A stretch of 64,000 bases of DNA from a virus (taxonomy: Duplodnaviria > Caudoviricetes): the IMG/VR virus record IMGVR_UViG_3300001580_001418, positions 30,081-94,080 of that record, one strand, 5' to 3'. Position 1 is the first letter of the stretch. Each line of letters begins with the position of its first letter. Positions 521 to 63,886 of the stretch are shown here, in pieces. Below the pieces are notes generated by a model. The model had not been told where the DNA came from. It ran no database searches and worked only from the letters and a program-made list of their open reading frames with translations. Made by a program: the position numbers and the translations under genes.

Positions 521-534
521 CACGCTTTTGCGTA
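521..534. promoter_or_regulatory. Type-A operator-like palindrome CACGCTTTTGCGTA
   Basis: 1 mismatch to TACGC-N4-GCGTA; abuts the RBS of the gene starting at 504. Confidence 0.7.
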
Positions 535-579
535 ATATCAAGATAAAAAAATACCTACCCAATCGCCTACCAAGCTTCA

Positions 580-1143
580 TTACGACACTCTTATTTGATA
601 CTTATACTTCAACGTCAAAGCTTTCGTGCTTTGAATCAACACACCTGTCGGATTCACGTCCCTACACATCAAGAAATATTGTGCGATGGAATAAGTTCGG
701 GCAATTGCCCCAAACTCATAAACAGTTATGTCCGCACCCGAGCTGTTGGTAAAAATTCTTTGATGCTCAAAGTACCTCACACTGCCATCGGTCGTCGGGA
801 CAGTTGGCACTGTATCAGCCCCATAGGATAACTGACCAACCCCTGTCCCATGAGCAATTTTAGCCTGCAAAGCATAGTCCCCGGGTGCCACGGCATTCGT
901 GCCCGTGCCTACCACCAGACCAAAAAGGTCAGCCGCCGCAGCTGACATATAATGCATATTGTTATGAGTAGCCGCAGATGCATTCGACGTGTTGAGTGTA
1001 TTTAGAAACACAGCATTGCTCATCAAATCATACCACCAATAAATCATCGCATTCACTGGCGGATCGCAGATTTTTCTATACGCTAATCTGCCCGGAGCAC
1101 CTATTCTTCCAACATAAGCCTTTAACTCGATATTAAATCTCAC
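580..1143 (-). CDS. Tail paralog 6 (tail-collar-fibre/DUF3751-like fold)
   Basis: VGTGTNAV..GDYALQAKIAHGTG.GQL.Y ... FTNSSG.DITV.E.G ... RDV motif shared with five neighbours. Confidence 0.75.
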   Translation of the reverse strand: MRFNIELKAYVGRIGAPGRLAYRKICDPPVNAMIYWWYDLMSNAVFLNTLNTSNASAATHNNMHYMSAAAADLFGLVVGTGTNAVAPGDYALQAKIAHGTGVGQLSYGADTVPTVPTTDGSVRYFEHQRIFTNSSGADITVYEFGAIARTYSIAQYFLMCRDVNPTGVLIQSTKALTLKYKYQIRVS

Positions 1144-1763
1144 GGCAATGGAATCTCCATTCTATAATTAAAAAAATACTCGTCTCCTGGCTCAAACAGA
1201 ATCCCGTCTGGAACCACATCGCGTGCAAACATCCAGCTATACAGAGCACTGGTGAATACATAAAGCCCTACCTCAAAGATGCGTAGTGGGCTGGTGTGTT
1301 TGTTTTCCACCGCACGAACATTTTGCAGAAAACGCATGTTCTTTTGCGGACCGTTCACAGCGTAAATCGGATAGCCCATATCTTGAACTTTATAAAACAA
1401 CTGACCTGACCCGGTACCGTGTGCTACCAGTGCTCCAAGAGAATATTGCGACAAAGCTGGCGGTGCAGAGCCTGTGCCAAGCACTACCCCTTTATTTGTC
1501 TCGCCCACAGCGGCTAAGACCGTCGGTGTCATATTGTAATTCATACCCCTCAACGTATTCGTTATGTCTAACGACGTATATGCAGGCAGCTCGGTATATC
1601 TGGAATGAGTATACAGAAAATCAATCCAAGCCCGAGCAGGTGGATCATCAGGATTCGAATAGACCAAAACCTTCTTTTTACCTACCCGCTTGTAGACATA
1701 AAGTCCAAATCCAAACGAATACGCATTCGGCTCATGCGACTGACGTCGAGTAACACGTTTCAA
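1140..1763 (-). CDS. Tail paralog 5 (start uncertain: TTG 1763, or frameshifted ATG 1735)
   Basis: LGTGSAPP...YSLGALVAHGTGSGQLFY ... EVGLY ... ARDV. Confidence 0.7.
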   Translation of the reverse strand: MKRVTRRQSHEPNAYSFGFGLYVYKRVGKKKVLVYSNPDDPPARAWIDFLYTHSRYTELPAYTSLDITNTLRGMNYNMTPTVLAAVGETNKGVVLGTGSAPPALSQYSLGALVAHGTGSGQLFYKVQDMGYPIYAVNGPQKNMRFLQNVRAVENKHTSPLRIFEVGLYVFTSALYSWMFARDVVPDGILFEPGDEYFFNYRMEIPLP

Positions 1764-1860
1764 GGAAAAAGCTCCTCTCTAAGTAAATTATCGCCCCTCT
1801 TTTCGATGCATGTTTGCTTCTTTTCTTCTTTTTCTCTTCTATCAGTTTATATCGTCTCAT
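1732..1860 (-). CDS. Small basic spacer protein (42 aa), similar to 3029-3241
   Basis: RBS AAGGAGAAAGGG, ATG 1860: MRRYKLIEEKKKKRSKHASKRGAIIYLERSFFLETCYSTSVA*. Confidence 0.55.
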   Translation of the reverse strand: MRRYKLIEEKKKKRSKHASKRGAIIYLERSFFLETCYSTSVA

Positions 1861-1870
1861 CCCTTTCTCC

Positions 1871-2455
1871 TTACGGTGCGGTAACTTTTACCCTGTACGT
1901 GATAGTCAGTGTCTTGGTATCAAGCACATCAATCGCCGTACCGAGGACATCCCTACACATCAGCCAATACAAGGCTTGCCCTTCATATCTATCGACCAGA
2001 CCTATCTCGGCCACCGTTACTGTTGACCCTGAACCATTTGTAAACCCCCTAACCACTTCGCAATAACAATCATTTCCTACGATAGTCGGAGCAATAAGGG
2101 TCACAGCCCCATACTGCAGCTGGCCAGTTCCAGTTCCGTGGGCAATCTTCGTTGCAAGAGCATAGTCGCTTACGGTTACGGCCGTTGTTCCAGATCCAAC
2201 CATAACTCCATAGTTCGCATCCGCTGAGGCAGCGTTTACACACCATGCCTGTCCAGAACCTATCACGAAGGACCTATCAACATTGCTGGTATCCTTCATG
2301 GTATACCCGAGACCCGTGCCAATACAGTACAGCCACGGATTAAATCCCCTAACCGGCGGATCGTTCCGCTTTCTAAAGACCATCTTGCGATGCCTTCCAC
2401 CGAGGTCACTCAGATATCCAAAAGCATCGATTAGAATTCCATGGCTTCTTCTCAT
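1871..2455 (-). CDS. Tail paralog 4
   Basis: VGSGTTAVTVSDYALATKIAHGTGTGQLQYG ... FTNGSG ... EIGL ... RDV. Confidence 0.75.
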   Translation of the reverse strand: MRRSHGILIDAFGYLSDLGGRHRKMVFRKRNDPPVRGFNPWLYCIGTGLGYTMKDTSNVDRSFVIGSGQAWCVNAASADANYGVMVGSGTTAVTVSDYALATKIAHGTGTGQLQYGAVTLIAPTIVGNDCYCEVVRGFTNGSGSTVTVAEIGLVDRYEGQALYWLMCRDVLGTAIDVLDTKTLTITYRVKVTAP

Positions 2456-2464
2456 CTTCTTCTC

Positions 2465-3019
2465 CTAAATTGTCGTCTGAACCTTATAAACCACAATCAA
2501 AATCCCCTCAGCCGGTACCGTTATTCCGCCCGTTGTATCTCTTGCAAGTAAAAAATACCATCCACCATTCAACCCATAAATGCCTACCTCATTTACCGTC
2601 ACATCCCCACCAGATAGGTTGATAATCTGCCTATAACCCTCTGTTGTGTACGTGCTTCCCGATAAGGTCGGGGCGGACCAATAGTTAGCCGAATAATACA
2701 GTTGACCACTACCCGTTCCATGCGCAATCAACGTTTGGAGCGTATAATCGCTAACGGTAACCGCATTCGCGCCCGTGCCTACCACAATTCCATAGGCATT
2801 CCCAGCAGCAGGATTGATTACGATTGAAGTATGGACATAAGACCTCTGTGTCCCCGATACATCCTTCCAGTTTTGATTGACCATTGTAAAATGGGTATAA
2901 ATAGCATAAAGCATAGCTTGGACAAAAGGATCGTTCTTCTTTCTCAATGCCAGCTTTCTTTTTCCTTTTTGATCCACCAAATACATTTCTAATCGCAAGA
3001 ACGTTCCTTTTTTTCCCAC
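2465..3019 (-). CDS. Tail paralog 3
   Basis: VGTGANAVTVSDYTLQTLIAHGTGSGQLYY ... NLSGGDVTVNEVG ... ARD. Confidence 0.75.
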   Translation of the reverse strand: MGKKGTFLRLEMYLVDQKGKRKLALRKKNDPFVQAMLYAIYTHFTMVNQNWKDVSGTQRSYVHTSIVINPAAGNAYGIVVGTGANAVTVSDYTLQTLIAHGTGSGQLYYSANYWSAPTLSGSTYTTEGYRQIINLSGGDVTVNEVGIYGLNGGWYFLLARDTTGGITVPAEGILIVVYKVQTTI

Positions 3020-3028
3020 TGCGGCCTC

Positions 3029-3241
3029 CTATGTTACTTCCGTTGAATATTCCGACCCATAGCTACACGTTTTGGTCGGCCAACCTGGCGTCACGGCATT
3101 GGTTCCGGTCGACCCCCACGTCCCGGTCTTTAACAACGCATCTCCCAAAACCGCTTGATTGGGACCAGAGCCGTACGCACACGTTGGGCCAATTGCCTCA
3201 CCTTTATACTTTTCTTGTCCGAGTAGCTTTCTTCTTCTCAT
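3029..3241 (-). CDS. Small spacer protein (70 aa)
   Basis: ATGA-coupled to upstream gene; MRRRKL...TGTNAVTPG...YSTEVT. Confidence 0.6.
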   Translation of the reverse strand: MRRRKLLGQEKYKGEAIGPTCAYGSGPNQAVLGDALLKTGTWGSTGTNAVTPGWPTKTCSYGSEYSTEVT

Positions 3242-3810
3242 GTCGTTATGCTCATTTTATACCTTAAGGTAAATATTTTCCCGTTGTTCACCGTTACTCC
3301 CGACCCTAAAACATCTCTCGCAAGCAAATAATAATACGCGGCAGCCTCATACTTTGAGTAGAGCCCAGTCTCATTAATCGTCACATCACCACCCGATGAA
3401 TTGGTAAAAGGACGGTGGAACACCATCAAAGTCTCGCTCGCACCCACCGTAAATATCACTAGTTCCGTAATCCCGTACACCAGCTGGCCAGATCCGGTCC
3501 CTTTGGCTATTTTTGTCTGTAGAGCATAATCATCCACACCCACTGCATTCGTGCCTGAACCAACCACGGGACCATAAGCATCTTCGTCCCGAGGAGCATT
3601 GAGCAGCATAGCATATCCAATCCACGCCCACGGACTGCTCTGATCATTCCCATCCACCTTCTTCATTGGAACACTTACATCTCCCGTGAACATCGAATAC
3701 ATATACCAATGGAAAGCCTTCACCACTGGATCACACCTCTTCCTGAAAACAAGACGAGGCTTGCCTCCGCAACCACTCAGATAACCGCTCAATTCAATAT
3801 TGAATCTCAT
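3238..3810 (-). CDS. Tail paralog 2
   Basis: VGSGTNAVGVDDYALQTKIAKGTGSGQLVYG; N-terminus MRFNIEL identical to 580-1143. Confidence 0.75.
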   Translation of the reverse strand: MRFNIELSGYLSGCGGKPRLVFRKRCDPVVKAFHWYMYSMFTGDVSVPMKKVDGNDQSSPWAWIGYAMLLNAPRDEDAYGPVVGSGTNAVGVDDYALQTKIAKGTGSGQLVYGITELVIFTVGASETLMVFHRPFTNSSGGDVTINETGLYSKYEAAAYYYLLARDVLGSGVTVNNGKIFTLRYKMSITT

Positions 3811-4379
3811 ATCGAGGTTTCCATTCTGTACGTCACCGACATTGTTGCTCTATCCAGGATTGCAACGCCCGGGCTAACTAAATCCCTTGCCAACACGTAA
3901 TAATAGCTGCCATGAGTTCCATAAAGTCCCACTTCATTCACCGTTATAGAACCACCTGATAAATTCGTAAGCTCCCGGATAAACACCGATCTATACATAG
4001 AGCCTGTCGGCTTTGCAGGCTGCGTAACTGCCATTGCCTGGTAATACAATTGCCCGCTTCCTGAACCATGCGCGATTATTGTATCCAGCTTATAGGCATC
4101 AAGACTAATCGCTGCCGTCCCCGTTCCGACCACGATTCCATAACTTCCATTTGCAACTCCAGCGGTTATAGACATCCCGGTCTGATTCCAGTCACGGCTG
4201 GTGTTGGTGATGTCTTTTATGGCTATTGTCGTTACATTCCAAAAAATCCCATACATCAAATATATTAAAGCCTTCATGAACGGATCGTCATTGAGCTGGC
4301 GCACCAAACGAAATTCTTTCTCGTCCTCGTTCCTCAAACGAATGTCACAGTGAAGATTAAAAAGCTGTTTCTTTCCCAC
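3807..4379 (-). CDS. Tail paralog 1
   Basis: VGTGTAAISLDAYKLDTIIAHGSGSGQLYY; N-terminus MGKK like 2465-3019. Confidence 0.75.
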   Translation of the reverse strand: MGKKQLFNLHCDIRLRNEDEKEFRLVRQLNDDPFMKALIYLMYGIFWNVTTIAIKDITNTSRDWNQTGMSITAGVANGSYGIVVGTGTAAISLDAYKLDTIIAHGSGSGQLYYQAMAVTQPAKPTGSMYRSVFIRELTNLSGGSITVNEVGLYGTHGSYYYVLARDLVSPGVAILDRATMSVTYRMETSI

Positions 4380-4382
4380 TTC

Positions 4383-4874
4383 TCAGATTACCTCTCCATA
4401 GATATTCATCGAACCTGTCGAGATTGACTTGACTGCCAGCCTTATAGAGGTTGCCCCCATCACGTCGACCATCTTGACGGTGCCAAAATAATTTCCAGTC
4501 GAAGTTCTTCTCCACTGCGATGCAGTAAAGGCTATCTCCTCACCAACGCCGATTATGGCAGGCGTGGTTGCGCCATCATAAAATACTGGCACTATCACGC
4601 AATTCGCCCCTGCTGTGTTAAAATCCACCTCGATCAATAGCACTGACTTATCGCCAACCGTTATCGCTGTCGATGTCAGGGCTGAAAGATCTACACCATC
4701 AGCAGCTGATATCGTCGCCCTATTTGGCGCACTATAAAAAGTCGACGGCAGATGAAGCGAGGCAAAATCAAACTTTTGGATTAACCTGTCGTGGGAATCC
4801 CCCTGCTCGTGACCATCTCTCGCCCCAATATACGCCCCCGTTCCTACATTTATTCCTACCGCTCGTTCAGCCAA
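4383..4874 (-). CDS. Putative tail structural protein (likely TTG start at 4874)
   Basis: AAGGAGGTG RBS before TTG 4874; beta-rich Ala/Thr/Val composition; tail module context. Confidence 0.55.
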   Translation of the reverse strand: MAERAVGINVGTGAYIGARDGHEQGDSHDRLIQKFDFASLHLPSTFYSAPNRATISAADGVDLSALTSTAITVGDKSVLLIEVDFNTAGANCVIVPVFYDGATTPAIIGVGEEIAFTASQWRRTSTGNYFGTVKMVDVMGATSIRLAVKSISTGSMNIYGEVI

Positions 4875-4893
4875 GGTCTCCACCTCCTTTAGG

Positions 4894-5409
4894 TCAGTCA
4901 GGGTCCAACGTGATCTTCGGGATGAACCCATGACTATCAGGTAAGTATTGAGAAAAATCACTCCCACCAGTAAGTTCTTTCCACCACTCAATCACACCCT
5001 TTTCAGAAAGAACCTTATTGCCACACTTCAAACAGCCCCAATATGTCTTGTTCTTTCCATCCTTCGAATCGCTGCAACCACCACAAATCGGATGCAGTTG
5101 CATACATTTTTGTTTTCCACACTTTGGGCAGTCCATTTTTGGAAAAACATCCCTAAACAGGTTATAGTTTTTCTGCGTTCTCACTTCGCCAGTAGCTTCG
5201 TCAACCTCTCTTACTATCTGAACCTTCTCGTGAGGGCCTATAACAAGACCGTCTTCGCCTACGGGCGGCGCATTCGGGTCACGTTTCAATATCTTTAGCG
5301 GATCGTCGTTATAATGTTTTGTCCTATATTTTTTCACTCTATCGGCTGTCGTTTTTAATTCAGGATAAAATCTCTGCAATAACTTGTAGCGGTGAATCTT
5401 TTCTTCCAT
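4894..5409 (-). CDS. Multi-Cys zinc-ribbon protein in tail module
   Basis: CPKC, CGGC and CLKC motifs; likely ATG 5409. Confidence 0.6.
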   Translation of the reverse strand: MEEKIHRYKLLQRFYPELKTTADRVKKYRTKHYNDDPLKILKRDPNAPPVGEDGLVIGPHEKVQIVREVDEATGEVRTQKNYNLFRDVFPKMDCPKCGKQKCMQLHPICGGCSDSKDGKNKTYWGCLKCGNKVLSEKGVIEWWKELTGGSDFSQYLPDSHGFIPKITLDPD

Positions 5410-13965: not shown

Positions 13966-14250
13966 TTAAGTTGCTGTGTGTCTTCTCATCACGACTCGCG
14001 CGTTATAGAGATCGAGCGCTTCGTGAATCGCCTCTCTACCTACATCTCCAACAATCACCCATCCATCAACGGCTTCCGCCTCAAACTCCAGAATCTTTTC
14101 TTGCAGTTCAGCGGTCGTGATCCAGTGAAATCGGTATCCTTTCGTTTCGATAAAACCAAGCTCCTGAATCACTGATTCACCATCGATCGTCGGGGTCTCA
14201 GCGCGCCTCGCAGTCTTTAATGGTTTATCAAACACAGTTGAGTAGCCCAT
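13966..14250 (-). CDS. Hypothetical tail-module protein
   Basis: RBS plus ORF in tail operon. Confidence 0.5.
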   Translation of the reverse strand: MGYSTVFDKPLKTARRAETPTIDGESVIQELGFIETKGYRFHWITTAELQEKILEFEAEAVDGWVIVGDVGREAIHEALDLYNARVVMRRHTAT

Positions 14251-14261
14251 CTCTCACCCTC

Positions 14262-14275
14262 TACGCATCAGCGTA
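14262..14275. promoter_or_regulatory. Type-A operator-like palindrome TACGCATCAGCGTA
   Basis: Perfect TACGC-N4-GCGTA, intergenic, next to an RBS. Confidence 0.75.
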
Positions 14276-14297
14276 AAATCAAACCAAAAAAACTCAT

Positions 14298-18057: not shown

Positions 18058-18566
18058 GCTTTCCTGATAACAATCTCGAAACTGTACTTATCCGCATGGG
18101 CACTCTCATAAATAATCGAATAGGAAACGCCCAAGGACGAAAGCACTCGCTTTACATAATCCAGGCTGAAATTTGAAACCTTGTGCGCCTCGTTATAACC
18201 TTGCCCCGTCAATTTACAGTGATCTCTATACTTCTGTTCTTCAGGACAATACAGGATCAAGGACCCACTCTGTTTGATGACCCTCAGCCATTCCCTCAAT
18301 ACCGGACCAGTCTCTCCTTCCGGGAAATCTTCAAGCAGATGGGACGAATAAACATAGTCCAGCACCCCATCTTTGAACCAATATAAATTCCTGGCATCTC
18401 CGTGGAGATTCTGGGGACTACTCCCAACCTCAGCATAAGGAATATCCAGGTCTACAGTAATTGCACTTGGGACAATCGGGTCTCCTCCAAACCCTATGTC
18501 CAACCCGTCTCCAAGACAAAACTTTTTAAGCCTCTCCCTGCAAATACTCGACTCGGATGGATACAC
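18054..18566 (-). CDS. Class I SAM methyltransferase (Methyltransf_11-like)
   Basis: GLDIGFGG...DYVYSSHLLED...LREWLRVIKQSGSLILYCP. Confidence 0.88.
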   Translation of the reverse strand: MYPSESSICRERLKKFCLGDGLDIGFGGDPIVPSAITVDLDIPYAEVGSSPQNLHGDARNLYWFKDGVLDYVYSSHLLEDFPEGETGPVLREWLRVIKQSGSLILYCPEEQKYRDHCKLTGQGYNEAHKVSNFSLDYVKRVLSSLGVSYSIIYESAHADKYSFEIVIRKA

Positions 18567-19702: not shown

Positions 19703-20824
19703 TTACGATGAGCTCAATGTCACTGTTGCAAAGCAGTCGCCTTGCACACACTTTTTTGCGTACCGGCTCATCATGCCCCTGACAGGCTGCATGGTATTCG
19801 GGTCGATCAGGAGCGGAGTCGTGTACAGCGGTATATACGGAGCATAGACATACCCCGTGTCAAGCCAGGATCCTCCCTTGAACCCAAGGAGCATCTTGTT
19901 GGTCTGATACCAAGGGTGCTTATAAACGACGAACCTATTCTTCAGGACGCCGAATCTGTGGATGCCTACATTGAAAAGCGCATCATCGACCGTCTCTTCG
20001 AGTTTGAAGCCCTCGAGCTTTTCAAGACGGGTGCAGGTGTCCGAATCAGACACGATCCATGTGGCGTTCCGATACCTCTTTTTGAAAATGAGGTTATTCG
20101 CATCGATGATCGCATCATACAGGGTCGCCTTATAGATCTTCGGATCGATGTTGATCCACGGAGCAATAGCGGGCATATTGATGTTCCAGTTCACGTTCCC
20201 AGCGCTCGCATTCAAGGTCATGTCGTCGATGATGATCATATCGACTTCTCTGATGATTTCATCGCCAGTCACTGCCATCAGCTCGCTCTCGGCATCGAGT
20301 CCATGATAAGCTCGGAGATCCTGCTGGGCCTCAATCGTCCACTTTGCCTTCAGGGCCTTTTCTTCAGCGCTGATGTCAACGCTCGAAATGTGAAAATTAA
20401 TTTCAGCAATATCGCCAGTCTCAGGCGTCCTGTCAGCGTAGTTCTTTGCAAGGGCACCTGCCTGATCAAGGCGATCGTCAACAGCGATGCTCCCCTTTGC
20501 AGTCCCATACCTGAAATCCAAGAAGAAAGCCTTTCCGGTCGGTTGGGACATCGGCTGCACAGAACAAAGATTCTGAGCGATCAACTTCGGGAAGATCCGC
20601 CGAACCAATGGAAATGCAAACGTCGGGAACGCACCAACATTGGTGATCTGCGAAGTCTCCTGCAAATAATTCAGATACCATTCCATGTTCTCCAAGAGAA
20701 CCTCGGTCTGCAGACGTTTCTGCTTTCCAAGGGGAGACCCATCCTCAATGCCCTCGGTAAGATAAGCCCACTTCTTGGTCCTCTCAGCGTTTTCCTCGAT
20801 CAAATACTTCATTTTGGGGTCCAT
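19703..20824 (-). CDS. Major capsid protein, T4 gp23-like family
   Basis: FPLVRRIFPKLIA..LCSVQPMSQPTGKAF.LDFRY; LKAKWTIEAQQDLRAYHGLDAESEL; GYVYAPYIPL; RGMMSRYA; true start ATG 20824. Confidence 0.95.
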   Translation of the reverse strand: MDPKMKYLIEENAERTKKWAYLTEGIEDGSPLGKQKRLQTEVLLENMEWYLNYLQETSQITNVGAFPTFAFPLVRRIFPKLIAQNLCSVQPMSQPTGKAFFLDFRYGTAKGSIAVDDRLDQAGALAKNYADRTPETGDIAEINFHISSVDISAEEKALKAKWTIEAQQDLRAYHGLDAESELMAVTGDEIIREVDMIIIDDMTLNASAGNVNWNINMPAIAPWINIDPKIYKATLYDAIIDANNLIFKKRYRNATWIVSDSDTCTRLEKLEGFKLEETVDDALFNVGIHRFGVLKNRFVVYKHPWYQTNKMLLGFKGGSWLDTGYVYAPYIPLYTTPLLIDPNTMQPVRGMMSRYAKKCVQGDCFATVTLSSS

Positions 20825-20857: not shown

Positions 20858-20871
20858 TACGCATTTGCGTC
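20858..20871. promoter_or_regulatory. Type-A operator-like palindrome TACGCATTTGCGTC
   Basis: 1 mismatch; upstream of the capsid RBS. Confidence 0.65.
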
Positions 20872-20885
20872 CGTTCTGAAAAAAC

Positions 20886-20927
20886 AAAAAGCCTGAGCAA
20901 TCCCCCATTGGGGACTTTCCCAGGCTT
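20886..20927 (-). terminator. Terminator-like hairpin between protease and capsid genes
   Basis: AGCCTGGG.AAGTCCCC AATG GGGGATT.CTCAGGCT followed by T-tract. Confidence 0.6.
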
Positions 20928-20964: not shown

Positions 20965-22305
20965 TTATGCAGTGCCGGCAGCAGTCTTTTTCCGAGCGAC
21001 ATCTTCAGGAACACCAGCGATCTGTCTCTCTCGGATTTTCTTCGCATCCATTTCGGCATCATGCTTATCCTCGTCCAGAACCTCACCCTTTCCCTTCGGC
21101 TTCTCTTTCTTGGGGTCCAATTCCTCAACGAGTTTCTGGATCCGTCCCTCTTCTGCAACAACCTTCTTGTCTACTTCGTCAACGGTCTTGCAATCGGCAA
21201 GGGCTTCCACAAGAAGCTTCTCGTGCTTCTTGCCAGCAGTCACTTCCAGGATCCTCTTCTGAACCTTCTCCTTCTCAGTAACCGATTTCTTCTCGTTCTC
21301 CATCTGCTCTTTCAGGGCCTTGTTCTCGGTTTCAAGACCAGACACTTTCCCTTCGAGTTCGCCCATCCTCTCCGCTATTCCTTCTTCCTCATCACTCTCC
21401 AATGCCCCCTCGGGCATATAGGGCTTAATCAGTTTCCCGATTTCGACGAAGGTTCCCATCATCCCCTGAAATTCCTCAGAATTCTTCACTTCCTCGATCA
21501 CCTCTTTCTTGACCTCTTCCTTCTTTGCCTCAACTTCCTTCAAAATCCTGGCATCGAAGTCTTTCTGCATCGTCTCGCGAATCTCCTTCTCCTTCTTCTC
21601 CACAGATTCCTTGACGAGCTGCTCACAAAGGTCAGGATAAGCCTTCCTCAACTCCTCAATGTTTTTAATTTCCATACTCGATGAACCTCCTTTCGTTTTT
21701 TGTGTTTCGCAGATTTCCTGCTTGCAGCCATCACATGGACCGCATTCTAAAATGTTTACCACTTCCACTTGCTCAGTAACTTGAGTGACCACGGCATCTT
21801 TCGTCGACTGCCCAATCACAAAATCAAACGTCTTGAGCGTCAAATCCTCTTGAACAATGTCCGCCATCTTCCCTTGCCAGTTGCCCTTTAGAACAGAACC
21901 AAAGGCTCTACTCGAAAGTCCAATCCTGCCACCAGCTCGAATAATCTCCTGCAAATTTTTTCCGCCAGGCTCAGTATTTAAAACGGTCGCCTCTCCAAAA
22001 TAAACCTTTCTCCCCTCAAGGACCTGCTTCTCAATCCCGGTCAGCATGGCAGCGGTATTCTTGATCGTTGATTTCCCATCTCCTGGATGATCAGCTTCAC
22101 CATAAACGCTATTCTCCGCCATCATAGGTTTCAGCTTCTCTATTTCGCGGTCAAGAATATGCTCACGATACACACGACCGTTACCATTTATTTCGTCTGC
22201 AACCGTAAAAATTCCTTTCACTCGCATCCTGCCACCATTCTTTGCAGAAGCCTCTTCGAGAATGGTAAAGGCAACCGGCATCGTCTCGATCAATAGTTCT
22301 TTCAC
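20965..22305 (-). CDS. Prohead protease (T4 gp21/U9-like) fused to coiled-coil scaffold
   Basis: GIFTVADEINGNGRVY, GEADHP, IGLSSRAFGS, TFDFV; Glu/Lys-rich C-terminal half; GTG 22305 with AGGAGGTG. Confidence 0.92.
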   Translation of the reverse strand: MKELLIETMPVAFTILEEASAKNGGRMRVKGIFTVADEINGNGRVYREHILDREIEKLKPMMAENSVYGEADHPGDGKSTIKNTAAMLTGIEKQVLEGRKVYFGEATVLNTEPGGKNLQEIIRAGGRIGLSSRAFGSVLKGNWQGKMADIVQEDLTLKTFDFVIGQSTKDAVVTQVTEQVEVVNILECGPCDGCKQEICETQKTKGGSSSMEIKNIEELRKAYPDLCEQLVKESVEKKEKEIRETMQKDFDARILKEVEAKKEEVKKEVIEEVKNSEEFQGMMGTFVEIGKLIKPYMPEGALESDEEEGIAERMGELEGKVSGLETENKALKEQMENEKKSVTEKEKVQKRILEVTAGKKHEKLLVEALADCKTVDEVDKKVVAEEGRIQKLVEELDPKKEKPKGKGEVLDEDKHDAEMDAKKIRERQIAGVPEDVARKKTAAGTA

Positions 22306-22350
22306 CCTCTCACCTCCTTTCTGTAAGCGTAACCACAAGACAAAACACTT

Positions 22351-23098: not shown

Positions 23099-23226
23099 TG
23101 TCCCTCCGTTTTCTTGTGGGCAATCTTATCCCACAGCTTTCCAAATAAAACCTTGAGCTGCTCTTTGTATTTATGCGCATATGCACCAGCAGCAAACGAA
23201 ACCACAATGATCACAATCGTCCTCAT
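23095..23226 (-). CDS. Small membrane protein (43 aa) in lysis cassette
   Basis: MRTIVIIVVSFAAGAYAHKYKEQLKVLFGKLWDKIAHKKTEGQ; translationally coupled on both sides. Confidence 0.55.
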   Translation of the reverse strand: MRTIVIIVVSFAAGAYAHKYKEQLKVLFGKLWDKIAHKKTEGQ

Positions 23227-23873
23227 ACGAATCCTCCTCCCTTGTAAAGCGGGACCCATCGATCAAGAATTTTTTCCACGTAATCCCTATTCTCTTCGAT
23301 CGCCCACGAAGCCCTTTTTGAAAAATGTTCGACATTGCAGATCCAACGTCCCCCGTCCTTTCCGTTTAAAACGGCCAGATCTTTATCCTTCAGAACCCAA
23401 CCATATCCACCGTTATAACCTGACAGCGAAAATCTCCAGCGATTATCGTCATCACGAGCAAACGAACAGCGATCGTGGAGCCACTTATCGTATTTGACCA
23501 GTGCCCGGATGGCCCACCTCACATCAAGCGGATTGTTATCCCCAAGGTCTGCCGGATATAATCGTGAAATCCAATCCGCCGTATCAGGCGTAAATTGAGC
23601 CAAACCTGATGCATAAACGCTCTTGGCATCTGGATTCCAACTGCTCTCCTGATGAATCTGCGCATAGAAAACTGTTCCATCTTGATCCAACCCCCAATGA
23701 TAGTTAACTTCAGCTCGTACCGTTCGCTTCAGGCGATACGCCAATGCCGGAATTCTCGGATCTCGAATTTCAATTGCTGGCTCAACCTTCGGAGTCGCCA
23801 CTTCCGGCGTCTCAATGGCAGGCTTACTACACCCCCAATAAAACACCAAGAATAACAGCGGCCATAACCGCAC
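23223..23873 (-). CDS. Endolysin, lytic transglycosylase (SLT) family, with N-terminal hydrophobic segment
   Basis: AQIHQESSWNPDAKS..ASGLAQFTPDTA...SGYNGGYG...ENRDYV; start uncertain (GTG 23873 proposed). Confidence 0.88.
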   Translation of the reverse strand: MRLWPLLFLVFYWGCSKPAIETPEVATPKVEPAIEIRDPRIPALAYRLKRTVRAEVNYHWGLDQDGTVFYAQIHQESSWNPDAKSVYASGLAQFTPDTADWISRLYPADLGDNNPLDVRWAIRALVKYDKWLHDRCSFARDDDNRWRFSLSGYNGGYGWVLKDKDLAVLNGKDGGRWICNVEHFSKRASWAIEENRDYVEKILDRWVPLYKGGGFV

Positions 23874-24275: not shown

Positions 24276-24278
24276 CTC

Positions 24279-25915: not shown

Positions 25916-26248
25916 TTACCGATAAATTTTGCTAACAAGCTTTCGTCCCACAAAAATATTAACCAACCTCTTCAATATCTTTATTGGATTACCGGACGCA
26001 GCAACCTCAACATTTCGCATAGTCCGCGCAGCTCTCCAGAGCTTTCCGCTAAGCTTTGGAATCCGGATGCTTCCCCTCTCCCCTTTAAGAATTGCCCGGG
26101 CTATCGATCTACCCTTAGTCGGCAGGCTGCCTCCTCTTCTCCCCGGTCTTCCCTTGTGGCCCCAATTCCCACTTCCGGCGCCGCCTTCGAAAAGGTCTGC
26201 TAAAACACCAGAAGAAATATCTTTCACAATTGCGTAATTTTCAGACAT
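25916..26248 (-). CDS. Tagged Arg-rich protein (putative capsid-internal cargo 3)
   Basis: DLFE-GGAGSGNWGHKGRPGRRGGSL tag. Confidence 0.7.
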   Translation of the reverse strand: MSENYAIVKDISSGVLADLFEGGAGSGNWGHKGRPGRRGGSLPTKGRSIARAILKGERGSIRIPKLSGKLWRAARTMRNVEVAASGNPIKILKRLVNIFVGRKLVSKIYR

Positions 26249-26258
26249 AAAAATACCT

Positions 26259-31264: not shown

Positions 31265-31278
31265 TACGCATGTGCGTA
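31265..31278. promoter_or_regulatory. Type-A operator-like palindrome TACGCATGTGCGTA
   Basis: Perfect match upstream of portal. Confidence 0.75.
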
Positions 31279-31288
31279 TTATCCGCAC

Positions 31289-31330
31289 AAAAAATAGGCG
31301 CTCCCGACAGCCCAACGCCGAAAGCGCCTA
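31289..31330 (-). terminator. Intrinsic terminator upstream of portal
   Basis: TAGGCGCTTTCGGCG-loop-TGTCGGGAGCGCCTA followed by TTTTTT. Confidence 0.75.
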
Positions 31331-31380
31331 CAAAAAAGGAGAGACAGTGATGGTTTCGCTTATATCATACAATGCACCTT

Positions 31381-31408
31381 AACATACAAGAATTAGAAAA
31401 CTTGTCAA
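31381..31408 (-). promoter_or_regulatory. sigma70-like promoter of the head operon
   Basis: TTGACA-N16-TATGTT in an AT-rich intergenic gap. Confidence 0.55.
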
Positions 31409-33616: not shown

Positions 33617-33630
33617 CACACAATTGCGTA
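33617..33630. promoter_or_regulatory. Type-A operator-like site CACACAATTGCGTA
   Basis: 2 mismatches; abuts the terL RBS. Confidence 0.6.
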
Positions 33631-36569: not shown

Positions 36570-36704
36570 TACGCTTTTGCGTATATTCATGGCGTAAAAA
36601 ATCCCATCATTCCATGATGCAATTACTTGCATGTAGCTATCGTTCCCGTCTGCAATCAATTGCAAATGCCGTTCGTCACGTTTCAGTTTTGCAATCAATA
36701 TGCA
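36570..36704. promoter_or_regulatory. Regulatory cluster: one type-A and three type-B palindromes
   Basis: TACGCTTTTGCGTA 36570-83; TGCAATTACTTGCA 36618-31; TGCAATCAATTGCA 36651-64; TGCAATCAATATGCA 36690-704. Confidence 0.7.
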
Positions 36705-43978: not shown

Positions 43979-45082
43979 TTTGCCTCCCTAACCTTACTGC
44001 ACGAACGGCACTGCCATTTCTTCCCCTTCACCAGGGTCTTCCATCTGCTTGTTTTACATTTCTCACAAGGCCTTGGCTTCTCCATTACTTTCCTCTCGTT
44101 ATTCCGGGCTGCTTCATCCTTTCGGGATTCTTGTATGCAAATCTCTCAAACTCTGAGATTCGTTCTGTGACCCCTAAAATCTGATGGTCAGTACACCCTG
44201 CCTCAATGGAGATTTGCAAATACGTTTTGAGCATGTCTACTGCGAGATTGTCCCTTGCACGAAACAGAATCATTGGCTCGTCATCCGGAACTTCTTCCCC
44301 GTTCGATGTCTTAATGATCTTTTCTCCTTCGATGTGGTACTTCGGGTCAATTACCTTCACTCCTCATCACCTCCATCCATTCGTCTCGCAAACTCCATGA
44401 CCCTGCCTTCCATCCTTTCGATCACGGTTGGGTCGTCAGCCCATCCAATAGCCCACACAAACAAATGCTGCGAGATACACAAGTCCCTGTTGAGCCCGCA
44501 GCGTTCATCTCGCTTACAACCAACACAAAAACTGACCTGCCCCATTCCAATCCCGGCCATCGTCTCGAGCATGGTACTCTCCCCCTTGATTGAAAATGTT
44601 TCACGTGACACGCATTTGCGTAAAATCAGTGCAAAATTTTATCTATGCCATACCTTTGATCTTTCCGTACACCCTGCAGATCGTTTGACCAAAGTCATTC
44701 AAACTGTAGGTCACGTCATAATCTTCCTGTGCCTTATGACAGGCGTTTCCTACCTTGAACCCTACGGGGATCCCACCAGCAAATATCATCTCGATAGGAC
44801 AGCCGTGACATCTGTTCGGCTCAGAAATGAAAATAGGTTTATCCTTCTTCCAACCCAGCAATCCTTACACCTCGTTCCCTTCGACATCGCTTACAGTATA
44901 AATTCCCAAACGCCACAGCCCCACAATCAGGACAAATAGGATGCTTATGAGGACCCACTTCTTGGCAGAGTAAAAATGGGCACGGTCCATCGAATATTGA
45001 AAATTCCACCAACTTAAGCGTATGACCAACGTTTTCGTTTCCCTTATCCATCTTACGAGCCTCTGCTTTATCTCAGCACTTA

Positions 45083-47072: not shown

Positions 47073-48582
47073 TCCCCTACATTGTAATGATTGGCGATTT
47101 CTTTATCTCTTTCCACAGCATTGCGTTTATAATAACCAGTAGCGCTTTCATGATTTCTTCAGGCCCCATCAACTTACCCTGCAGGTCTGCATCGTCAAAT
47201 TCATCCACCAAAAGCACCACCTTGACCCTTCCTTTTAAGGGCGACCCAACAAGCCTTTTGACTTCATCTGGAAAATACTGGTCAGGCATAACCTCCTCCT
47301 CTTTGAATGGTGGCGGGGCAGCCAATCCTCAACAATTTCCCCTCAGAATTTGTTTAAGTACAAAGCCACCCCACCACGCAGCTATCCTCCCTTAACGTCC
47401 TTGACCACCTTTTTTACAAAGCTCGTGAGCGCATCAGCAAACGGGATCTCCTTCACTTCTTTCAATATCCTTTGCCGCTCTTCTGCTGTTAGCTTAAAAT
47501 CCCTTAGTCCTTCCACCAGGGCAGCCTTCGCTTCGTTCAGCTCCTTCTTTCCCTGTTTGCTGTTATTCAGCGCCACAAAAATCAAAATGATAAACACGAC
47601 GGTCAAAATCAACAGCCACAAAAACAACGCTCCAACTGGACTCATACCTCTCACCTCCTTTCCTATCCTGGCGTACCAGGATTAGTCGGTTCATCCTTCT
47701 TGCCCCATATTGAGGTAGCCCCTTTATAGGCAAGCCATGTTCCAAACGACAGCCCGAAAATCCCCGTGATAAATCCACCCGTCTTCTCCAAATTCTTCGT
47801 CAAGGACTCGAAAAACAGACTGATAAACCACATCCCATAAACCAAGACGGTCTCACATAGGGCAACAAACCAGCCTTCAATACTTCCATTACGGACAATC
47901 TTCAGCTTTGCCATCAATCTCTCCTTTGAGGTCAACTACCTCGTAGAATCGTTGTTATGTTGCTTTATCGTTAGCGAATGCCTGTAATCGATCAATTAAA
48001 CAAAGATGACATTGGCACTTATCGCCCATGCTAATTATCTTGCAACCTCCGGAGCGTATGGCCCTCCATTGTTCCCTTAGTCGAGCAGCAATGGCAGAAG
48101 GGCAACATAACAAATCACTTGAGCGGACACTTGATAAATCGGTGTCCCGTTCTTCGTTGATCCAAACATCTCCGGGGCGAGAATTTAAACCGTGGTTTTC
48201 TCCTTTAACGGATACCCATGCCATATTGACCCCTTTCGCCTTAGCGTAAATTCAGAGCAAAAAAATCCGTTCACTCATTTCTGGTCAACCAGCGCCTGAT
48301 AAGACCTGTCATTCACGTCCCTGAAACACTCCACGCAAACGTACTTCCTAACACAACCGTCCTGGTCGGGCACCGAGACATGCTTCATCGTCCTCTGCCA
48401 CCACCACTTCTTGCATAAATAGCATTGATCGAAAACCTCAATCTCTTCCCTGTTTTCTTCCTCTACTGTTTTTAATGCCATTATTACCCCCAAATTTGAG
48501 CCGTAGAGCCACGTTTAGACATCGTTAACCCTTTGGGTTGATGGGTTTATATGTGGGTATTTTGCAATCAATTGCATACAGC

Positions 48583-55637: not shown

Positions 55638-55651
55638 TTCACAATTGCGTA
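55638..55651. promoter_or_regulatory. Type-A operator-like site TTCACAATTGCGTA
   Basis: Intergenic before the initiator gene; identical to the 26223-26236 copy. Confidence 0.6.
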
Positions 55652-55671
55652 TCTAAAAGACAAAAAAATTC

Positions 55672-56049
55672 CTAAAAGGGGACATCATCGTCGGGGCCGG
55701 GGGATTCGCTTTCCCCGCGTTCCTTCTTCTTGGTTAAAAAATGGACTTTATCAGCGATGATTTCGGTTACCTTCTTCTTCTCTCCATCCTTTTCATACTC
55801 TCGGCTCCTCAGCTTCCCTACGACAAGAACACCATCCCCTTTGCCAAGGTATTGACCGCACGTCTCCGCAAGGTTTGAAAAGCAAACCACGCGAACCCAT
55901 TCCAATCTCGATTCTTCTTCCCCATCCTTCTTCCACTTTTCCGACATCGCCAAACTGAATGAAGCTATTGCCATCCCTGTCTGCAGGTGCTTTACCTCAG
56001 GGGCATTCCCCACGTTCCCGCCCAAAACAACAAGATTGATTCCTCTCAT
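55672..56049 (-). CDS. ssb: Single-stranded DNA-binding protein
   Basis: NLVVLGGNVG..PE...W.RVVCF..LAE....YL.KGD.V.V.GKL..R.YE...DDDVPF. Confidence 0.95.
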   Translation of the reverse strand: MRGINLVVLGGNVGNAPEVKHLQTGMAIASFSLAMSEKWKKDGEEESRLEWVRVVCFSNLAETCGQYLGKGDGVLVVGKLRSREYEKDGEKKKVTEIIADKVHFLTKKKERGESESPGPDDDVPF

Positions 56050-60731: not shown

Positions 60732-60929
60732 CTACACCTTCATACATCCTTTCACCTTGTGCGCCACAATCCACGCATCAACATCCTTCCCCACAAAACG
60801 AAGCATTCCGCCAATCCGAACATGAGGCATGATCCCAGCCTTGCACTTCTTGTATACCCACGACGGCGATACATTCAGTTTCTCCGACACCTCGTTGATG
60901 GTAAGAAATCCGTTGTCCATATCAAACAT
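60732..60929 (-). CDS. Excisionase-like HTH protein
   Basis: LTINEVSEKLNVSPSWVYK....G.MPHVRIGG.LRF. Confidence 0.88.
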   Translation of the reverse strand: MFDMDNGFLTINEVSEKLNVSPSWVYKKCKAGIMPHVRIGGMLRFVGKDVDAWIVAHKVKGCMKV

Positions 60930-61221
60930 CTCCTTCCCTTGGTTTACCCCTATCTAACTCCTCTACAAAATTCATTACCTCCCACAATTTTCTTGCCTGC
61001 TCCTTAATCAGTCGAAAATCGCCAGCATCCTTGCTACCATTCGAGAGATACAGTTCTGCAATCTCGAAAAGTTTCTGTAACTCAGGGATTTTCCAGCCTC
61101 TTTCTCCATTTAACTTTCGGCTTAGCTCAGGCTCAGAAATTCCAAGTTTTAAGGCAACGGCTTTCTGTCCGCCTGCCTTTGCAATTGCCAACCTGAACTC
61201 TTTTGATAAATCAACTGACAA
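60922..61221 (-). CDS. Cro-like HTH regulator
   Basis: GQKAVALKLGISEPELSRKLNGER; divergent from repressor. Confidence 0.8.
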   Translation of the reverse strand: MSVDLSKEFRLAIAKAGGQKAVALKLGISEPELSRKLNGERGWKIPELQKLFEIAELYLSNGSKDAGDFRLIKEQARKLWEVMNFVEELDRGKPREGDV

Positions 61222-61264: not shown

Positions 61265-61353
61265 TACGCTTTAGCATATTTTGTATATTGTGGTGTATCA
61301 ATGAACTAACACAATAGCGTAAATATGTCAAGTAAATAATACGCAGGAGCGTA
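61265..61353. promoter_or_regulatory. Three type-A operators and a leftward (lytic) promoter
   Basis: TACGCTTTAGCATA 61265-78; AACACAATAGCGTA 61308-21; TACGCAGGAGCGTA 61340-53; minus-strand TTGACA at 61331-61326. Confidence 0.75.
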
Positions 61354-61357
61354 ACTT

Positions 61358-62170
61358 ATGGACAAAAAAAGAGAATCTTCTCACACTTTCTTTATCGACC
61401 GCCTCTGCGATGCAGCAGAACGCCACATCGGAGCGAATAAACACGATCGCGGCTTCAAAAGGGCGTTAGCCAAAGCTCTCGAGGCACGGGACAGCACCGT
61501 CCAAAGATGGTTCGGTGGGTCATTTCCCGAGGCAGAATACATTGTCAGAATACACCAAAAATTCGGCATCACACCAAACCAACTATTCGGAATCGAAAAT
61601 GGCGGTGAAAAAATCAAATCGCTTGACTTGCACAAGGTCAAATTTATCGTTGCAGCCAGGGACAAAAACTTACCCGAATGCTATCTTGACCCCGAAAAAT
61701 ACAGCGTCGGCCCAATCCTTAAGGATTCAAAATCAGCCTGCCACCCAGACAACATCGACGAAGCCGACATCGACTCCTGGGGCATTAGCCGGAAAGACCT
61801 CGTTCTGCACCGCGAAAATGTATACGGAGTCATCGCTCCAGAAAGGATCGGTATGAGCATGTGGCCCGTCATCAAGCCCGGCGACATGATGGTCATCGAT
61901 GCATCCGACAAATCACTTATTGACGGTGGCATATTTGCACTCTGCATCAAAAACGGAGAATTTACCGTCAGACAGATCAAGAAGGTCGAAAACAGCCTAA
62001 TTCTAATTCCCTGGTTCCTCAGGCAATACCAGGTCGAAATGATAAACCTAGACGAATATCCAAATGTCGTTATTGGAAGGGTCATTTTTTCCCTGACATA
62101 CCTTATGGCGCTCGGTTCAGAACCGCCACCAGAAACCATCACTGCATCTATCCTTAGTAGCAAAAAGTAG
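61358..62170 (+). CDS. CI-like repressor (HTH + S24-like domain)
   Basis: RALAKALE..DSTVQRWFGG.FP...GITPNQL.G HTH; GMSMWPVIKPGDMMVID...VIGRV. Confidence 0.88.
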   Translation: MDKKRESSHTFFIDRLCDAAERHIGANKHDRGFKRALAKALEARDSTVQRWFGGSFPEAEYIVRIHQKFGITPNQLFGIENGGEKIKSLDLHKVKFIVAARDKNLPECYLDPEKYSVGPILKDSKSACHPDNIDEADIDSWGISRKDLVLHRENVYGVIAPERIGMSMWPVIKPGDMMVIDASDKSLIDGGIFALCIKNGEFTVRQIKKVENSLILIPWFLRQYQVEMINLDEYPNVVIGRVIFSLTYLMALGSEPPPETITASILSSKK

Positions 62171-62177
62171 CAAGCGT

Positions 62178-62282
62178 CCATGGCATACATCCCTATAAGG
62201 ATACGAAATCAAAACTGTATCATTGAAAGATAAACAAAACCCAATCGTCGGGAAAGTTATATGCTCAATCAGTCATCATTAA
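62178..62282 (+). pseudogene. Relic of a second repressor C-terminus
   Basis: PWHTSL*GYEIKTVSLKDKQNPIVGKVICSISHH* aligns with repressor PWFLRQYQVEMINLDEYPNVVIGRVIFSLTYL. Confidence 0.6.
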
Positions 62283-62297
62283 CCCATTCATAAAAAA

Positions 62298-62639
62298 ATG
62301 AGCATTGGTATCGCATTCTCGTGGATAGTCTTCTCTTTTATGGTAGCTGCTTTCGCTCACTATAAACGTCGTAGTTTAATTGGTTGGCTCGCAGCTTCAT
62401 TGGCATTTTCACCTATCATCACCTGCATCATTCTCCTTTGCCTAGACGACAATCCGGATTTGAAAAAATGCCCAAAATGTGCCGAATACGTTCGCGAAGA
62501 AGCCTCTCTGTGCCGGTTCTGCAACTTCGCTTTCTCAGATCAAACAGAAAAAGATAATCTCCCTAGACGCTCCAAATTTAGAACCCGGCAACAATATGAG
62601 AAATGGAAAGAGGCCAGAGCCCGTCATCTCTCTAAATAA
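62298..62639 (+). CDS. Membrane protein with zinc ribbon (lysogenic operon)
   Basis: Two TM segments then KKCPKCAE......LCRFC. Confidence 0.75.
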   Translation: MSIGIAFSWIVFSFMVAAFAHYKRRSLIGWLAASLAFSPIITCIILLCLDDNPDLKKCPKCAEYVREEASLCRFCNFAFSDQTEKDNLPRRSKFRTRQQYEKWKEARARHLSK

Positions 62640-62641
62640 CT

Positions 62642-63745
62642 ATGGCATCAATCCAAAAAAGTTCCGAAAAGGGCTATCGTATCTATTGGCGTCTCTATCT
62701 TTCAAATGGGACCTACAAAGAGAAATATAAAACCTCAAGGTCAAAAACCATCCTTAACGAACTCCTACACGACATAGCAAAGATCGAAATCCTTTCCCGC
62801 CGGAACGAACTTTCTCAGGAAGATGCCGTCAGAGCCTTTCACCTCAAGCTAATTAGTAAAGAAGAACTCTCTCTTCTTGGCCCAAACATGCAGGATCCAA
62901 CCGACCACTATCTCCATGAACTTAGAGCAGACTTCGAAACCAAATCAAAAGCGGAATCTTCCACCATGTACTGCCATGGAGCAAATCTCTCCAAGGCAAA
63001 CATCTTAGACGAAGCCTTCAAAGACACTTCCCTTCGCAACATCTCGCCCGAGCATATTGAAGAATTCAGGGCAGACAGGAAGAAAGCTGTCACTAACACA
63101 ACAATCAACCAAGACCTTAAAGCTCTCAGGAAATATTTGGACATTGCAGTCAATAAGGGCTACATCAAAGAAAACCCTGCGCGTAAGGTCAAACTTCTCC
63201 GCGAACCCAAGAACCGAATCCCAAGGTGCTTCTATCCAGACGAACTCAAACAATTCTTCAAAGCGATAAAGAATTTTAAGCACTTTCTTCATGGAGATTT
63301 CAGCTTCATCGTACGATTTCTGATCTACACAGGACTCAGACGCTCCGAACTCTGCAATCTCAAACCCGAAAACATTAAACTTCATCTTCGGCAGATCCAC
63401 CTTCTCGGCAAGGGGCAAAAAGCAAGGGTCGTAGGCATCAACAAATCCCTCATCCCCGAACTCAAGAAAAGAATCAAAAACGAATACATTATTGATCACT
63501 CAATCCATCCTTCTTCGATCAGCCGGGCGTTCAAGGTGGCATGCAGACGTATTAATTTACCAAATGCCCTGACCCTTCATTCGCTACGCCATACATACAT
63601 CTCATATCTGCTCCAAAAGGGCGTACCCCCTAAACAGGTCAGGGAACTCGCAGGCCACTTTAGCCTATCCATCACTGACAGATACACTCATGCCCTTCCC
63701 TCCAATAAGATAATAGAGGACGTCCTCGACTTCGGCCAAGTGTAG
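62642..63745 (+). CDS. int: Tyrosine recombinase (phage integrase)
   Basis: YTGLRRSEL, GKGQKAR, HSLRHTY, LAGHFSLSITDRYTH. Confidence 0.96.
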   Translation: MASIQKSSEKGYRIYWRLYLSNGTYKEKYKTSRSKTILNELLHDIAKIEILSRRNELSQEDAVRAFHLKLISKEELSLLGPNMQDPTDHYLHELRADFETKSKAESSTMYCHGANLSKANILDEAFKDTSLRNISPEHIEEFRADRKKAVTNTTINQDLKALRKYLDIAVNKGYIKENPARKVKLLREPKNRIPRCFYPDELKQFFKAIKNFKHFLHGDFSFIVRFLIYTGLRRSELCNLKPENIKLHLRQIHLLGKGQKARVVGINKSLIPELKKRIKNEYIIDHSIHPSSISRAFKVACRRINLPNALTLHSLRHTYISYLLQKGVPPKQVRELAGHFSLSITDRYTHALPSNKIIEDVLDFGQV

Positions 63746-63760
63746 CCAAAGTGTAGCCAA
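63739..63760. repeat. Tandem 11-bp direct repeat AGTGTAGCCAA x2 (candidate integrase arm-type sites)
   Basis: Exact repeats at 63739-49 and 63750-60, between int and the tRNA. Confidence 0.65.
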
Positions 63761-63886
63761 CCCCTACCAAATTATCTGATTTTCACCACTACGTACACAA
63801 TTGCGAAACTTCTCAGGTGGGACCGTAACCCTGCGTCAAAGGCATGTAAGCATTATACTTTCCCGATACTATTCGGGAATTGAAGT

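Follow-up and report, generated by a model that had tools for sequence, protein, structure and literature searches.

The DNA analysed here, a stretch of 64,000 nucleotides (the window), is the right 64 kb of one 94,080-bp virus record, IMGVR_UViG_3300001580_001418. It carries dispersed copies of a 14-bp palindrome, TACGC-N4-GCGTA, which an earlier note had described as a stoperator-like operator. A tRNA-Glu(CTC) gene is found at 63887-63962 on the minus strand, just past the tyrosine integrase gene (62642-63745), and the leftmost end of the record carries a partial copy of the 3' part of this tRNA gene (contig 36-83; contig numbers refer to the whole record). Because the tRNA gene and its partial copy bound the record, it is a single prophage of ~93.9 kb, integrated in tRNA-Glu with att repeats at both ends, and includes no host chromosome.

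GC skew is strongly negative over the full length of the prophage. Nearly all genes are transcribed leftward, starting from the cro-like gene, and the only rightward genes are cI, one small open reading frame (ORF) and the integrase gene. Transcription of the tRNA-Glu gene runs into the prophage, in the direction of cro and against that of int and cI. Annotated early and replication genes encode an SbcCD-like protein, SSB, a DnaC-like loader, endonuclease VII and a topoisomerase-like protein. Helicase, methyltransferase, ParA-like and HTH-M78 (HTH, helix-turn-helix) genes are located left of the window. No DNA match to the prophage was found among GenBank phages.

Copies of the palindrome and their oriented flank

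The palindrome has the consensus TACGCAATTGCGTA, with the half-site WACRC, and is a perfect inverted repeat over 14 bp, including its AATT centre. Perfect copies of TACGC-N4-GCGTA are present at 14262, 31265, 36570 and 61340, as had been claimed. These 4 copies compare with 0.02 expected, and 0/100 shuffled sequences reached that number. One-mismatch copies at 521, 20858, 44609, 48235 and 61265 were likewise confirmed, giving 9 sites with at most one mismatch against 0.57 expected. A control set of 267 kb from unrelated phage contigs held 1 perfect and 2 one-mismatch copies, none of them with the oriented flank described below. Because two-mismatch matches occur at chance frequency (30 seen in 94 kb versus ~39 expected by base counting, which is not significant alone), such copies were counted only if other evidence backed them. 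Of the variants that the earlier note had listed, those at 26223, 33617 and 55638 are made credible by an oriented flank shared with the other sites (position weight matrix scores of 35-42 versus at most 19.4 in shuffles), and the variant at 61308 is credible because its position is conserved in relatives. A supposed inverted copy at 37424 was not recognisable as a copy and is to be dropped. The copy at 63794 should probably be dropped as well; the att-proximal stretch in which it lies is conserved as a whole in L037, a metagenomic locus described below. The remaining 30 kb of the prophage, to the left of the window, have four further sites, at contig 12466, 16712, 16762 and 21443.

Outside the cI/cro switch the palindrome forms part of a longer unit, the module, of which there are 13 in the prophage, 10 of them in the window (Table 1). 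When read along transcription, the dispersed copies align over ~32 nt, consisting of a T-run, a ~10-nt spacer (G.ccTGAWWt) and the palindrome, whose upstream half-site is better conserved than the downstream one. The T fraction was calculated by position from the palindrome for 21 modules of this phage and its relative G2 (IMGVR_UViG_3300032069_000010). It is 0.67-0.86 at -17 to -11, 0.05 at -10 and 0.0 at -20. The claim of a T-tract upstream of the palindrome in the transcribed direction therefore holds more sharply than it was made, as the T-run is bounded at -17 to -11. The dispersed palindrome itself is real, but its functional unit would be the ~32-nt oriented cassette of T-run, spacer and palindrome and not the bare 14-mer.

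The sites are polar, as had been proposed. All 13 dispersed modules, together with the switch copy OA, face the direction of transcription and 0 are reversed, for which the coin-flip probability is ~2e-4. A matrix made from the dispersed sites gave 16 matches, all on the transcribed strand and 0 on the other. Its scores for the dispersed sites (34-46 versus at most 19.4 in shuffled sequence) are circular; this circularity does not touch the one-sidedness of the flank. Of the 12 T7 runs that the whole prophage has on its coding strand, 5 have the palindrome 10 nt later. Runs of five or more T are present in 9/12 module-bearing gaps versus 14/47 other gaps.

All dispersed modules are intergenic except the one at 26223, which lies in the first codons of a gene. 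The distance from the end of the upstream ORF to the palindrome is 3-45 nt at 9/13 modules; at the others it is 86-177 nt or no ORF is close. A Shine-Dalgarno sequence and a start codon follow 10-40 nt past the palindrome. These ORF ends and starts bear out the description of the sites as mostly just upstream of a ribosome-binding site (RBS) or start codon.

Two origins for the conserved flank were considered and rejected. The T-run is the tail of a true intrinsic terminator, with a stable hairpin before it, at only 2/13 modules, those before the portal and capsid genes (energies in Table 1). At the other 11 modules and OA the hairpin energies are -2.5 to -13.1 kcal/mol, where the background has a mean of -6.2 and a standard deviation of 3.2 kcal/mol. 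The T-tracts are thus present as claimed, but two of them belong to terminators, and the terminator reading does not hold generally. The conserved TGA at -9 is not the stop codon of the upstream gene, since it is out of frame and the real stops precede the T-run.

Table 1. Window coordinates of modules, switch operators and principal genes
Feature	Position	Strand	Details
Fibre-like gene	ending at 504 (start 504)		Pfam Gp80 fibre domain
Module	521..551	-	Palindrome 521-534, T7 run 545-551; before the fibre-like gene
Module	14262..14292	-	Perfect palindrome 14262-14275, T7 run 14286-14292; between stop codon and RBS of 94-aa gene
Major capsid protein	19703-20824
Module + intrinsic terminator	20858..20927	-	Palindrome 20858-20871, T runs 20879-20890, hairpin 20891-20927 (-26.8 kcal/mol); then capsid gene start 20824
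Protease	20965-22305
Module	26223..26253	-	Palindrome 26223-26236 in first codons of 110-aa gene (start 26248), T5 run 26249-26253; conserved in G2
Portal	29674-31245
Module + intrinsic terminator	31265..31331	-	Perfect palindrome 31265-31278, T6 run 31289-31294, hairpin 31294-31331 (-23.7 kcal/mol); then portal start 31245; conserved in L003
Large terminase	31645-33606
Module, weak T-tract	33617..33630	-	Palindrome 10 nt before large-terminase start
Module	36570..36601	-	Perfect palindrome 36570-36583, T6 run 36596-36601; before 180-aa gene 36017-36559
Module	44609..44636	-	Palindrome 44609-44622, T4 run 44633-44636; before small gene (start ~44572)
Module	48235..48265	-	Palindrome 48235-48248, T7 run 48259-48265; 89-aa gene start 10 nt past palindrome
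Module	55638..55668	-	Palindrome 55638-55651, T7 run 55662-55668; between SSB gene (55672-56049) and 308-aa gene preceding DnaC-like loader gene
Cro-like protein (DUF739)	60922..61221	-	First gene of leftward lytic transcript; second candidate reader of the palindrome
OC	61265..61278		Leftward-first half TATGCT = -10 of second leftward promoter TTGATA-17-TATGCT (61301-61273)
OB	61308..61321		One half ACAC-type; in 17-nt spacer of leftward cro promoter (perfect TTGACA / TAGTTC-type -10)
OA	61340..61353		Perfect palindrome; AGGA spacer = cI RBS, 4 nt before cI ATG
cI-type repressor, 270 aa	61358..62170	+	N-terminal helix-turn-helix, C-terminal S24/LexA-like domain; candidate reader of the palindrome
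Doubtful copy	63794..63807		2 mismatches, no T-tract; between integrase end and tRNA-Glu att site

The cI/cro switch and its repressor

Three copies of the palindrome, OA, OB and OC, were confirmed in the cI/cro switch, and OA does cover the cI RBS as the earlier note had stated. Centre-to-centre spacings of the operators are 32 and 43 bp, or ~3 and ~4 helical turns. Read leftward, OA also has a T7 run (61364-61370, within cI codons 3-5) at the distance seen in the modules.

The switch is conserved among relatives. In metagenomic loci that encode CI homologues (37-91% identical), operators were found at two or all three positions in 15/17. The conserved positions, counted from the cI start, are -18 (OA), -50 (OB) and ~-93 (OC), and the TTGACA hexamer recurs too. 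L037, in which CI is 37% identical, has the same switch and a perfect module 9.1 kb into its lytic side. It is mainly because this architecture is conserved in relatives that the palindrome was assigned to the immunity repressor and Cro as its candidate readers. Cro probably reads the palindrome as well as CI.

CI contains a Peptidase_S24 domain (E=7e-8), and LexA structures match residues 163-239. Its homologues are named as XRE-type HTH proteins. Among cultured phages CI matches only the cI proteins of phi80, HK225 and YP3, with 25-28% identity (28% for phi80). The helix S-T-V/I-Q-R-W-F is invariant in 21 CI homologues. CI keeps the catalytic serine of the S24 family (GMSM), and an arginine, residue 205, aligns with the catalytic lysine in the VTVK motif of LexA, which we take to be Lys156. 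By alignment only, arginine occupies this position in at least 90% of 22 homologues. RecA-stimulated self-cleavage, which uses the Ser-Lys dyad, may have been lost in CI. A protein with HTH_3 and Peptidase_M78 domains (ImmA/IrrE-like), encoded at contig 23210-24367, is a candidate protease that could inactivate CI.

Promoter control or elongation control

Two relatives were compared with this phage at orthologous gene junctions. G1 (53.6 kb, capsid protein 75% identical) has 0 modules. G2 (64.7 kb, capsid protein 80% identical) has 7, all co-oriented with the genes. The capsid junction has the same intrinsic terminator in all three phages. In G1 the T-run of this terminator is followed directly by the RBS, whereas the palindrome sits between them in this phage and G2. 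The portal junction was compared between this phage and G1 (the G2 portal match begins at residue 70); G1 has the terminator without the palindrome, in contrast to both here. At the 94-aa gene the G1 stop codon is joined straight to the RBS, where this phage has a whole 36-nt module. G2 lacks a module at the place of the one at contig 21443. On the evidence of these junctions the module is an optional cassette and not the promoter of the downstream gene. Since the G1 genes stand at the same junctions without it, expression of the downstream genes does not depend on the module. Its dispensability points to a negative or insulating element and away from a promoter.

Two of the junctions show further features. 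At contig 21443-21600 and at ~18270-18380 in G2, a sigma-70-like promoter precedes a 65-aa gene in both phages (TTGACA-17-TAGCGT here, TAGTGT in G2), and in this phage only a module lies in the 5' leader. At ~34523-34590 in G2, the junction orthologous to that of module 14262 (gene 13966-14250), a T7 run is followed by a different, G+C-rich palindrome of ~18 nt. Other kinds of inverted repeat may also be joined to the T-run.

The modules were also scanned for promoters. Sigma-70 registers in which the T-run, TGAWWT, either half-site or the downstream flank served as -35 or -10 were tried, and none gives both hexamers. The extracytoplasmic function (ECF), sigma-H, sigma-54 and sigma-28 consensus sequences have spacings that do not fit the modules. 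A strong sigma-70-like site within 150 nt upstream was present at 2/13 modules (background rate 0.8%; the host promoter repertoire may differ), and these two modules are 86-102 nt downstream of it. Because the modules are mostly without recognisable promoters, elongation control fits better than promoter control.

We favour a model in which the palindrome is the operator of a dimeric CI-type repressor and the bound repressor would stall RNA polymerase on the U-tract, in the manner of L5 stoperators; taken jointly, these two propositions seem to us about evenly balanced between true and false. A roadblocked bacterial polymerase holds the RNA 3' end some 11-18 nt behind the obstacle, a figure from roadblock work with EcoRI-Q111 and LacI. 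The T-run at -17 to -11 coincides with the stall position expected from this distance. That CI is the binder is deduced from the switch, and that elongation is impeded with the help of the T-tract is deduced from this geometry.

In a lysogen, the bound repressor would block polymerases arriving from host promoters, from prophage genes expressed in lysogeny and from leaky phage promoters. The RNA 3' end of the stalled polymerase would lie on the U-tract, forming a weak rU:dA hybrid that would favour pausing, backtracking and release. The cassette would then work as a conditional terminator that needs the repressor, and at the portal and capsid genes a hairpin terminator would back it up. Once the repressor was inactivated the blocks would vanish and the 91-kb leftward gene array could be read through. 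OA, together with the T-run encoded in cI, could halt read-through from the host tRNA-Glu gene that points into the prophage. A more specific proposal, which we consider less likely than not, is that the module would be a bipartite terminator for bacterial RNA polymerase that needs no hairpin, has a U-tract release element at a fixed distance before a roadblock, is active only with the immunity repressor and has spread between genes as an insertable unit.

Several observations weigh against repressor-dependent stalling. The T-tract is weak or absent at 3/13 modules of this phage (contig 12466, 33617 and 44609) and at 3/7 modules of G2. A symmetric dimer cannot by itself make a site polar; the flank, with a role that is itself deduced from its position, is the only source of polarity. 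That flank resembles the 5' end of cI beside OA and might be a relic of duplication instead of a functional part. The T-run could alternatively aid binding through DNA bending. In 9 kb of L036, which has divergent operators, dispersed copies are absent. The CI family shows no variation in the recognition helix, and the G1 and G2 fragments do not include the cI region. Cro bound to the dispersed sites in lytic growth would be counter-productive unless its binding were weak. Finally, promoters of a type used by the host may have gone unrecognised at the modules.

This last point leads to an unlikely alternative, in which the modules are promoter operators as in P1 and SPbeta, overlapping real lytic promoters at which the repressor blocks initiation. 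The modules stand at sensible unit boundaries, before replication, packaging, portal, capsid and fibre genes, and two of them follow the strong sigma-70-like sites described above. Known networks are built in this way, P1 with 22 C1 operators (PMC8546580) and SPbeta with MrpR and its SPBRE sites (PMC10516654), both in promoter regions. However, no -35/-10 register was found, and 11/13 modules have no promoter-like site above background. There is also no room for a promoter, because a stop codon a few nucleotides before the T-run and an RBS directly after the palindrome flank the module closely, and in G1 the same capsid, portal and 94-aa genes stand at their junctions without it. The G1 junctions also speak against a promoter specific to the phage, whether its polymerase or sigma factor were phage-modified or phage-encoded or it depended on an activator bound to the palindrome. 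This is very unlikely, even though a ~32-nt conserved, oriented motif directly before RBSs does recall T7-type promoters. No RNA polymerase or sigma factor gene was found in Pfam and PHROGs annotation scans of 66 proteins. A dimer on the palindrome would cover the transcription start, with the start codon 10-20 nt away, and the same palindrome serves as an operator in the switch.

It is quite unlikely that the modules serve another phage reader or purpose, be it Cro only, an HTH_17 protein, the HTH-M78 regulator, a partition or nucleoid-organising protein or the loading of an antiterminator. The prophage does encode several other DNA-binding proteins and a ParA-like ATPase, and phage-plasmids such as N15, which have dispersed centromere-like palindromes, provide a precedent. 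Yet three copies fixed in the switch, at the cI RBS and in the spacer of the cro promoter among them, are the signature of an immunity repressor. Partition explains neither the polarity nor the location before RBSs, and a better candidate for such roles is a second palindrome family, TGCAA-N4/5-TTGCA, clustered ~3 kb from parA (contig 22.1-22.3 kb). The least probable explanation, which we consider highly improbable, is an mRNA element, in which the U-tract and a 5-bp hairpin before the RBS would direct RNase processing, stabilise the message or act as a translational operator. The modules are always in sense orientation and lie in 5' untranslated or intercistronic regions, and G-U pairing would survive in several variants (A to G and C to T in the 3' half). 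The hairpin reading was nevertheless rejected, as forced hairpins reach just -1.4 to -5.3 kcal/mol and four modules are at ~0. Moreover, the loop is A/T-rich and self-palindromic, as in a DNA site, and in the switch the same sequence works on both strands of a promoter region. An Rfam scan found only the tRNA.

Comparison with known systems and neighbouring features

In function the nearest known system is that of the L5-type stoperators, found in cluster A mycobacteriophages (L5 gp71, TipsytheTRex repressor; PMC9283540). They are asymmetric 13-mers, with >20 sites in 52 kb, and are read by a monomer with an HTH and a 'Stoperator' domain (PMC9283540). As in L5, the same site is found in the early promoter region (the three switch copies) and in dispersed copies (13, all co-oriented). 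Many copies of the putative immunity-repressor site occupy short gaps between genes, away from recognisable promoters and oriented along transcription, and the role proposed here is again a prophage-wide block of elongation. Unlike L5, the site is a 14-bp symmetric palindrome with a dimeric CI/LexA-type S24 protein as its candidate reader. There are ~13 sites in 94 kb, and the polarity comes from a separate T-run 11-17 nt upstream. No gp71-like protein was detected in the scans of 66 proteins, and the sole repressor of the switch is the S24/LexA-type CI. The candidate regulator is unrelated to L5 gp71, and the earlier note had called the phage unrelated to L5. With neither asymmetric sites nor a monomeric repressor of the gp71 type, the system is, judged by its sequence, not a member of the L5 family.

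The switch itself resembles that of lambda, with divergent cI and cro genes, three palindromic operators interleaved with promoters and an S24 C-terminal domain in the repressor. In lambdoid phages, however, operators are present only at OL and OR, whereas here they are spread over the late genes, and CI differs from lambda-type repressors by its arginine at the position of the LexA catalytic lysine. P1 and SPbeta, of the large temperate phages with dispersed operators in genomes of roughly 40-134 kb, share with this prophage one master repressor and sites scattered over the genome. In contrast to theirs, most modules here have neither a recognisable promoter nor room for one, and the repressor families differ. 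Because dispersed repressor sites are known outside L5 from these two phages, the novelty is smaller than the earlier note implied. What is new is a symmetric CI-type operator coupled to a precisely placed T-run, without promoters and with cassette-like gain and loss.

Oriented 22-bp intergenic repeats of T1-like phages (T1, Stevie, TLS) have also been likened to stoperators (PMC4319613, PMC11447400). Like the modules they are dispersed, intergenic and co-oriented with transcription; unlike them they are asymmetric and occur in virulent phages that have no repressor. RNA polymerase I stops 15 bp upstream of the Reb1 site in a T-rich stretch, where roadblock, T-stretch and upstream hairpin cooperate (PMC12366685). 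Reb1/Nsi1/TTF-I terminators and the modules share the order of an optional hairpin, a T-rich stretch, ~10-15 bp and a protein site. The likeness would be one of principle, as the former belong to another domain of life and another polymerase, there is no homology, and a hairpin is present at 2/13 modules here.

The mechanism of prophage-wide silencing by dispersed repressor sites has so far been worked out mainly for the stoperators of actinobacteriophages and, as promoter operators, in P1 and SPbeta. To these the present case adds a classical CI/LexA-type candidate reader, promoterless sites at gene junctions and a T-run at the predicted position of the stalled RNA 3' end. If the bipartite proposal is true, stoperators would have evolved a second time, independently, from a symmetric CI operator, and the module would do in bacteria what the Reb1/T-rich terminator does for RNA polymerase I. 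If confirmed, the combination of operator and U-tract would be a simple, portable and switchable terminator. Insulation of a 94-kb one-strand prophage from read-through, despite its place directly behind a host tRNA gene, would be explained as well.

The second palindrome family mentioned above is independent of the first. Its TGCAA-N4-TTGCA form is located mostly before RBSs in the early region (36618-36664, 38965, 40409, 41153, 48563 and 60716), and two exact copies, at 36618 and 36651, are just upstream of module 36570. A TTGCAA-N5-TTGCAA form is often found inside late genes (9014, 15299, 19655, 24417, 29655 and 56732). The parA-like gene is ~3 kb and the HTH-M78 gene ~1 kb away from a non-coding stretch (contig 22121-22350) in which about six copies of the family cluster. 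G1, G2 and L036 have the family too, and it may be the site of a second regulator or a centromere.

A row of similar ~190-aa genes (580-4991) adjoins the fibre-like gene behind module 521. The 180-aa protein encoded behind module 36570, considered as a late regulator upstream of the packaging genes, had no informative match. The gap between the terminase and portal genes (31286-31632, minus strand) contains a 58-aa NrdR-like zinc-ribbon ORF at 31456-31632 (PF22811, E=9e-9). The same gap has a strong sigma-70-like promoter, TTGACA-16-TATGTT (31408-31381), followed ~45 nt later by the terminator of the portal junction. Promoter and terminator together predict an RNA of ~85 nt, which would recall lambda PR'-tR' (6S RNA) in Q-type antitermination. 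Since the capsid and portal genes lie behind conserved terminators, some antitermination seems to be needed.

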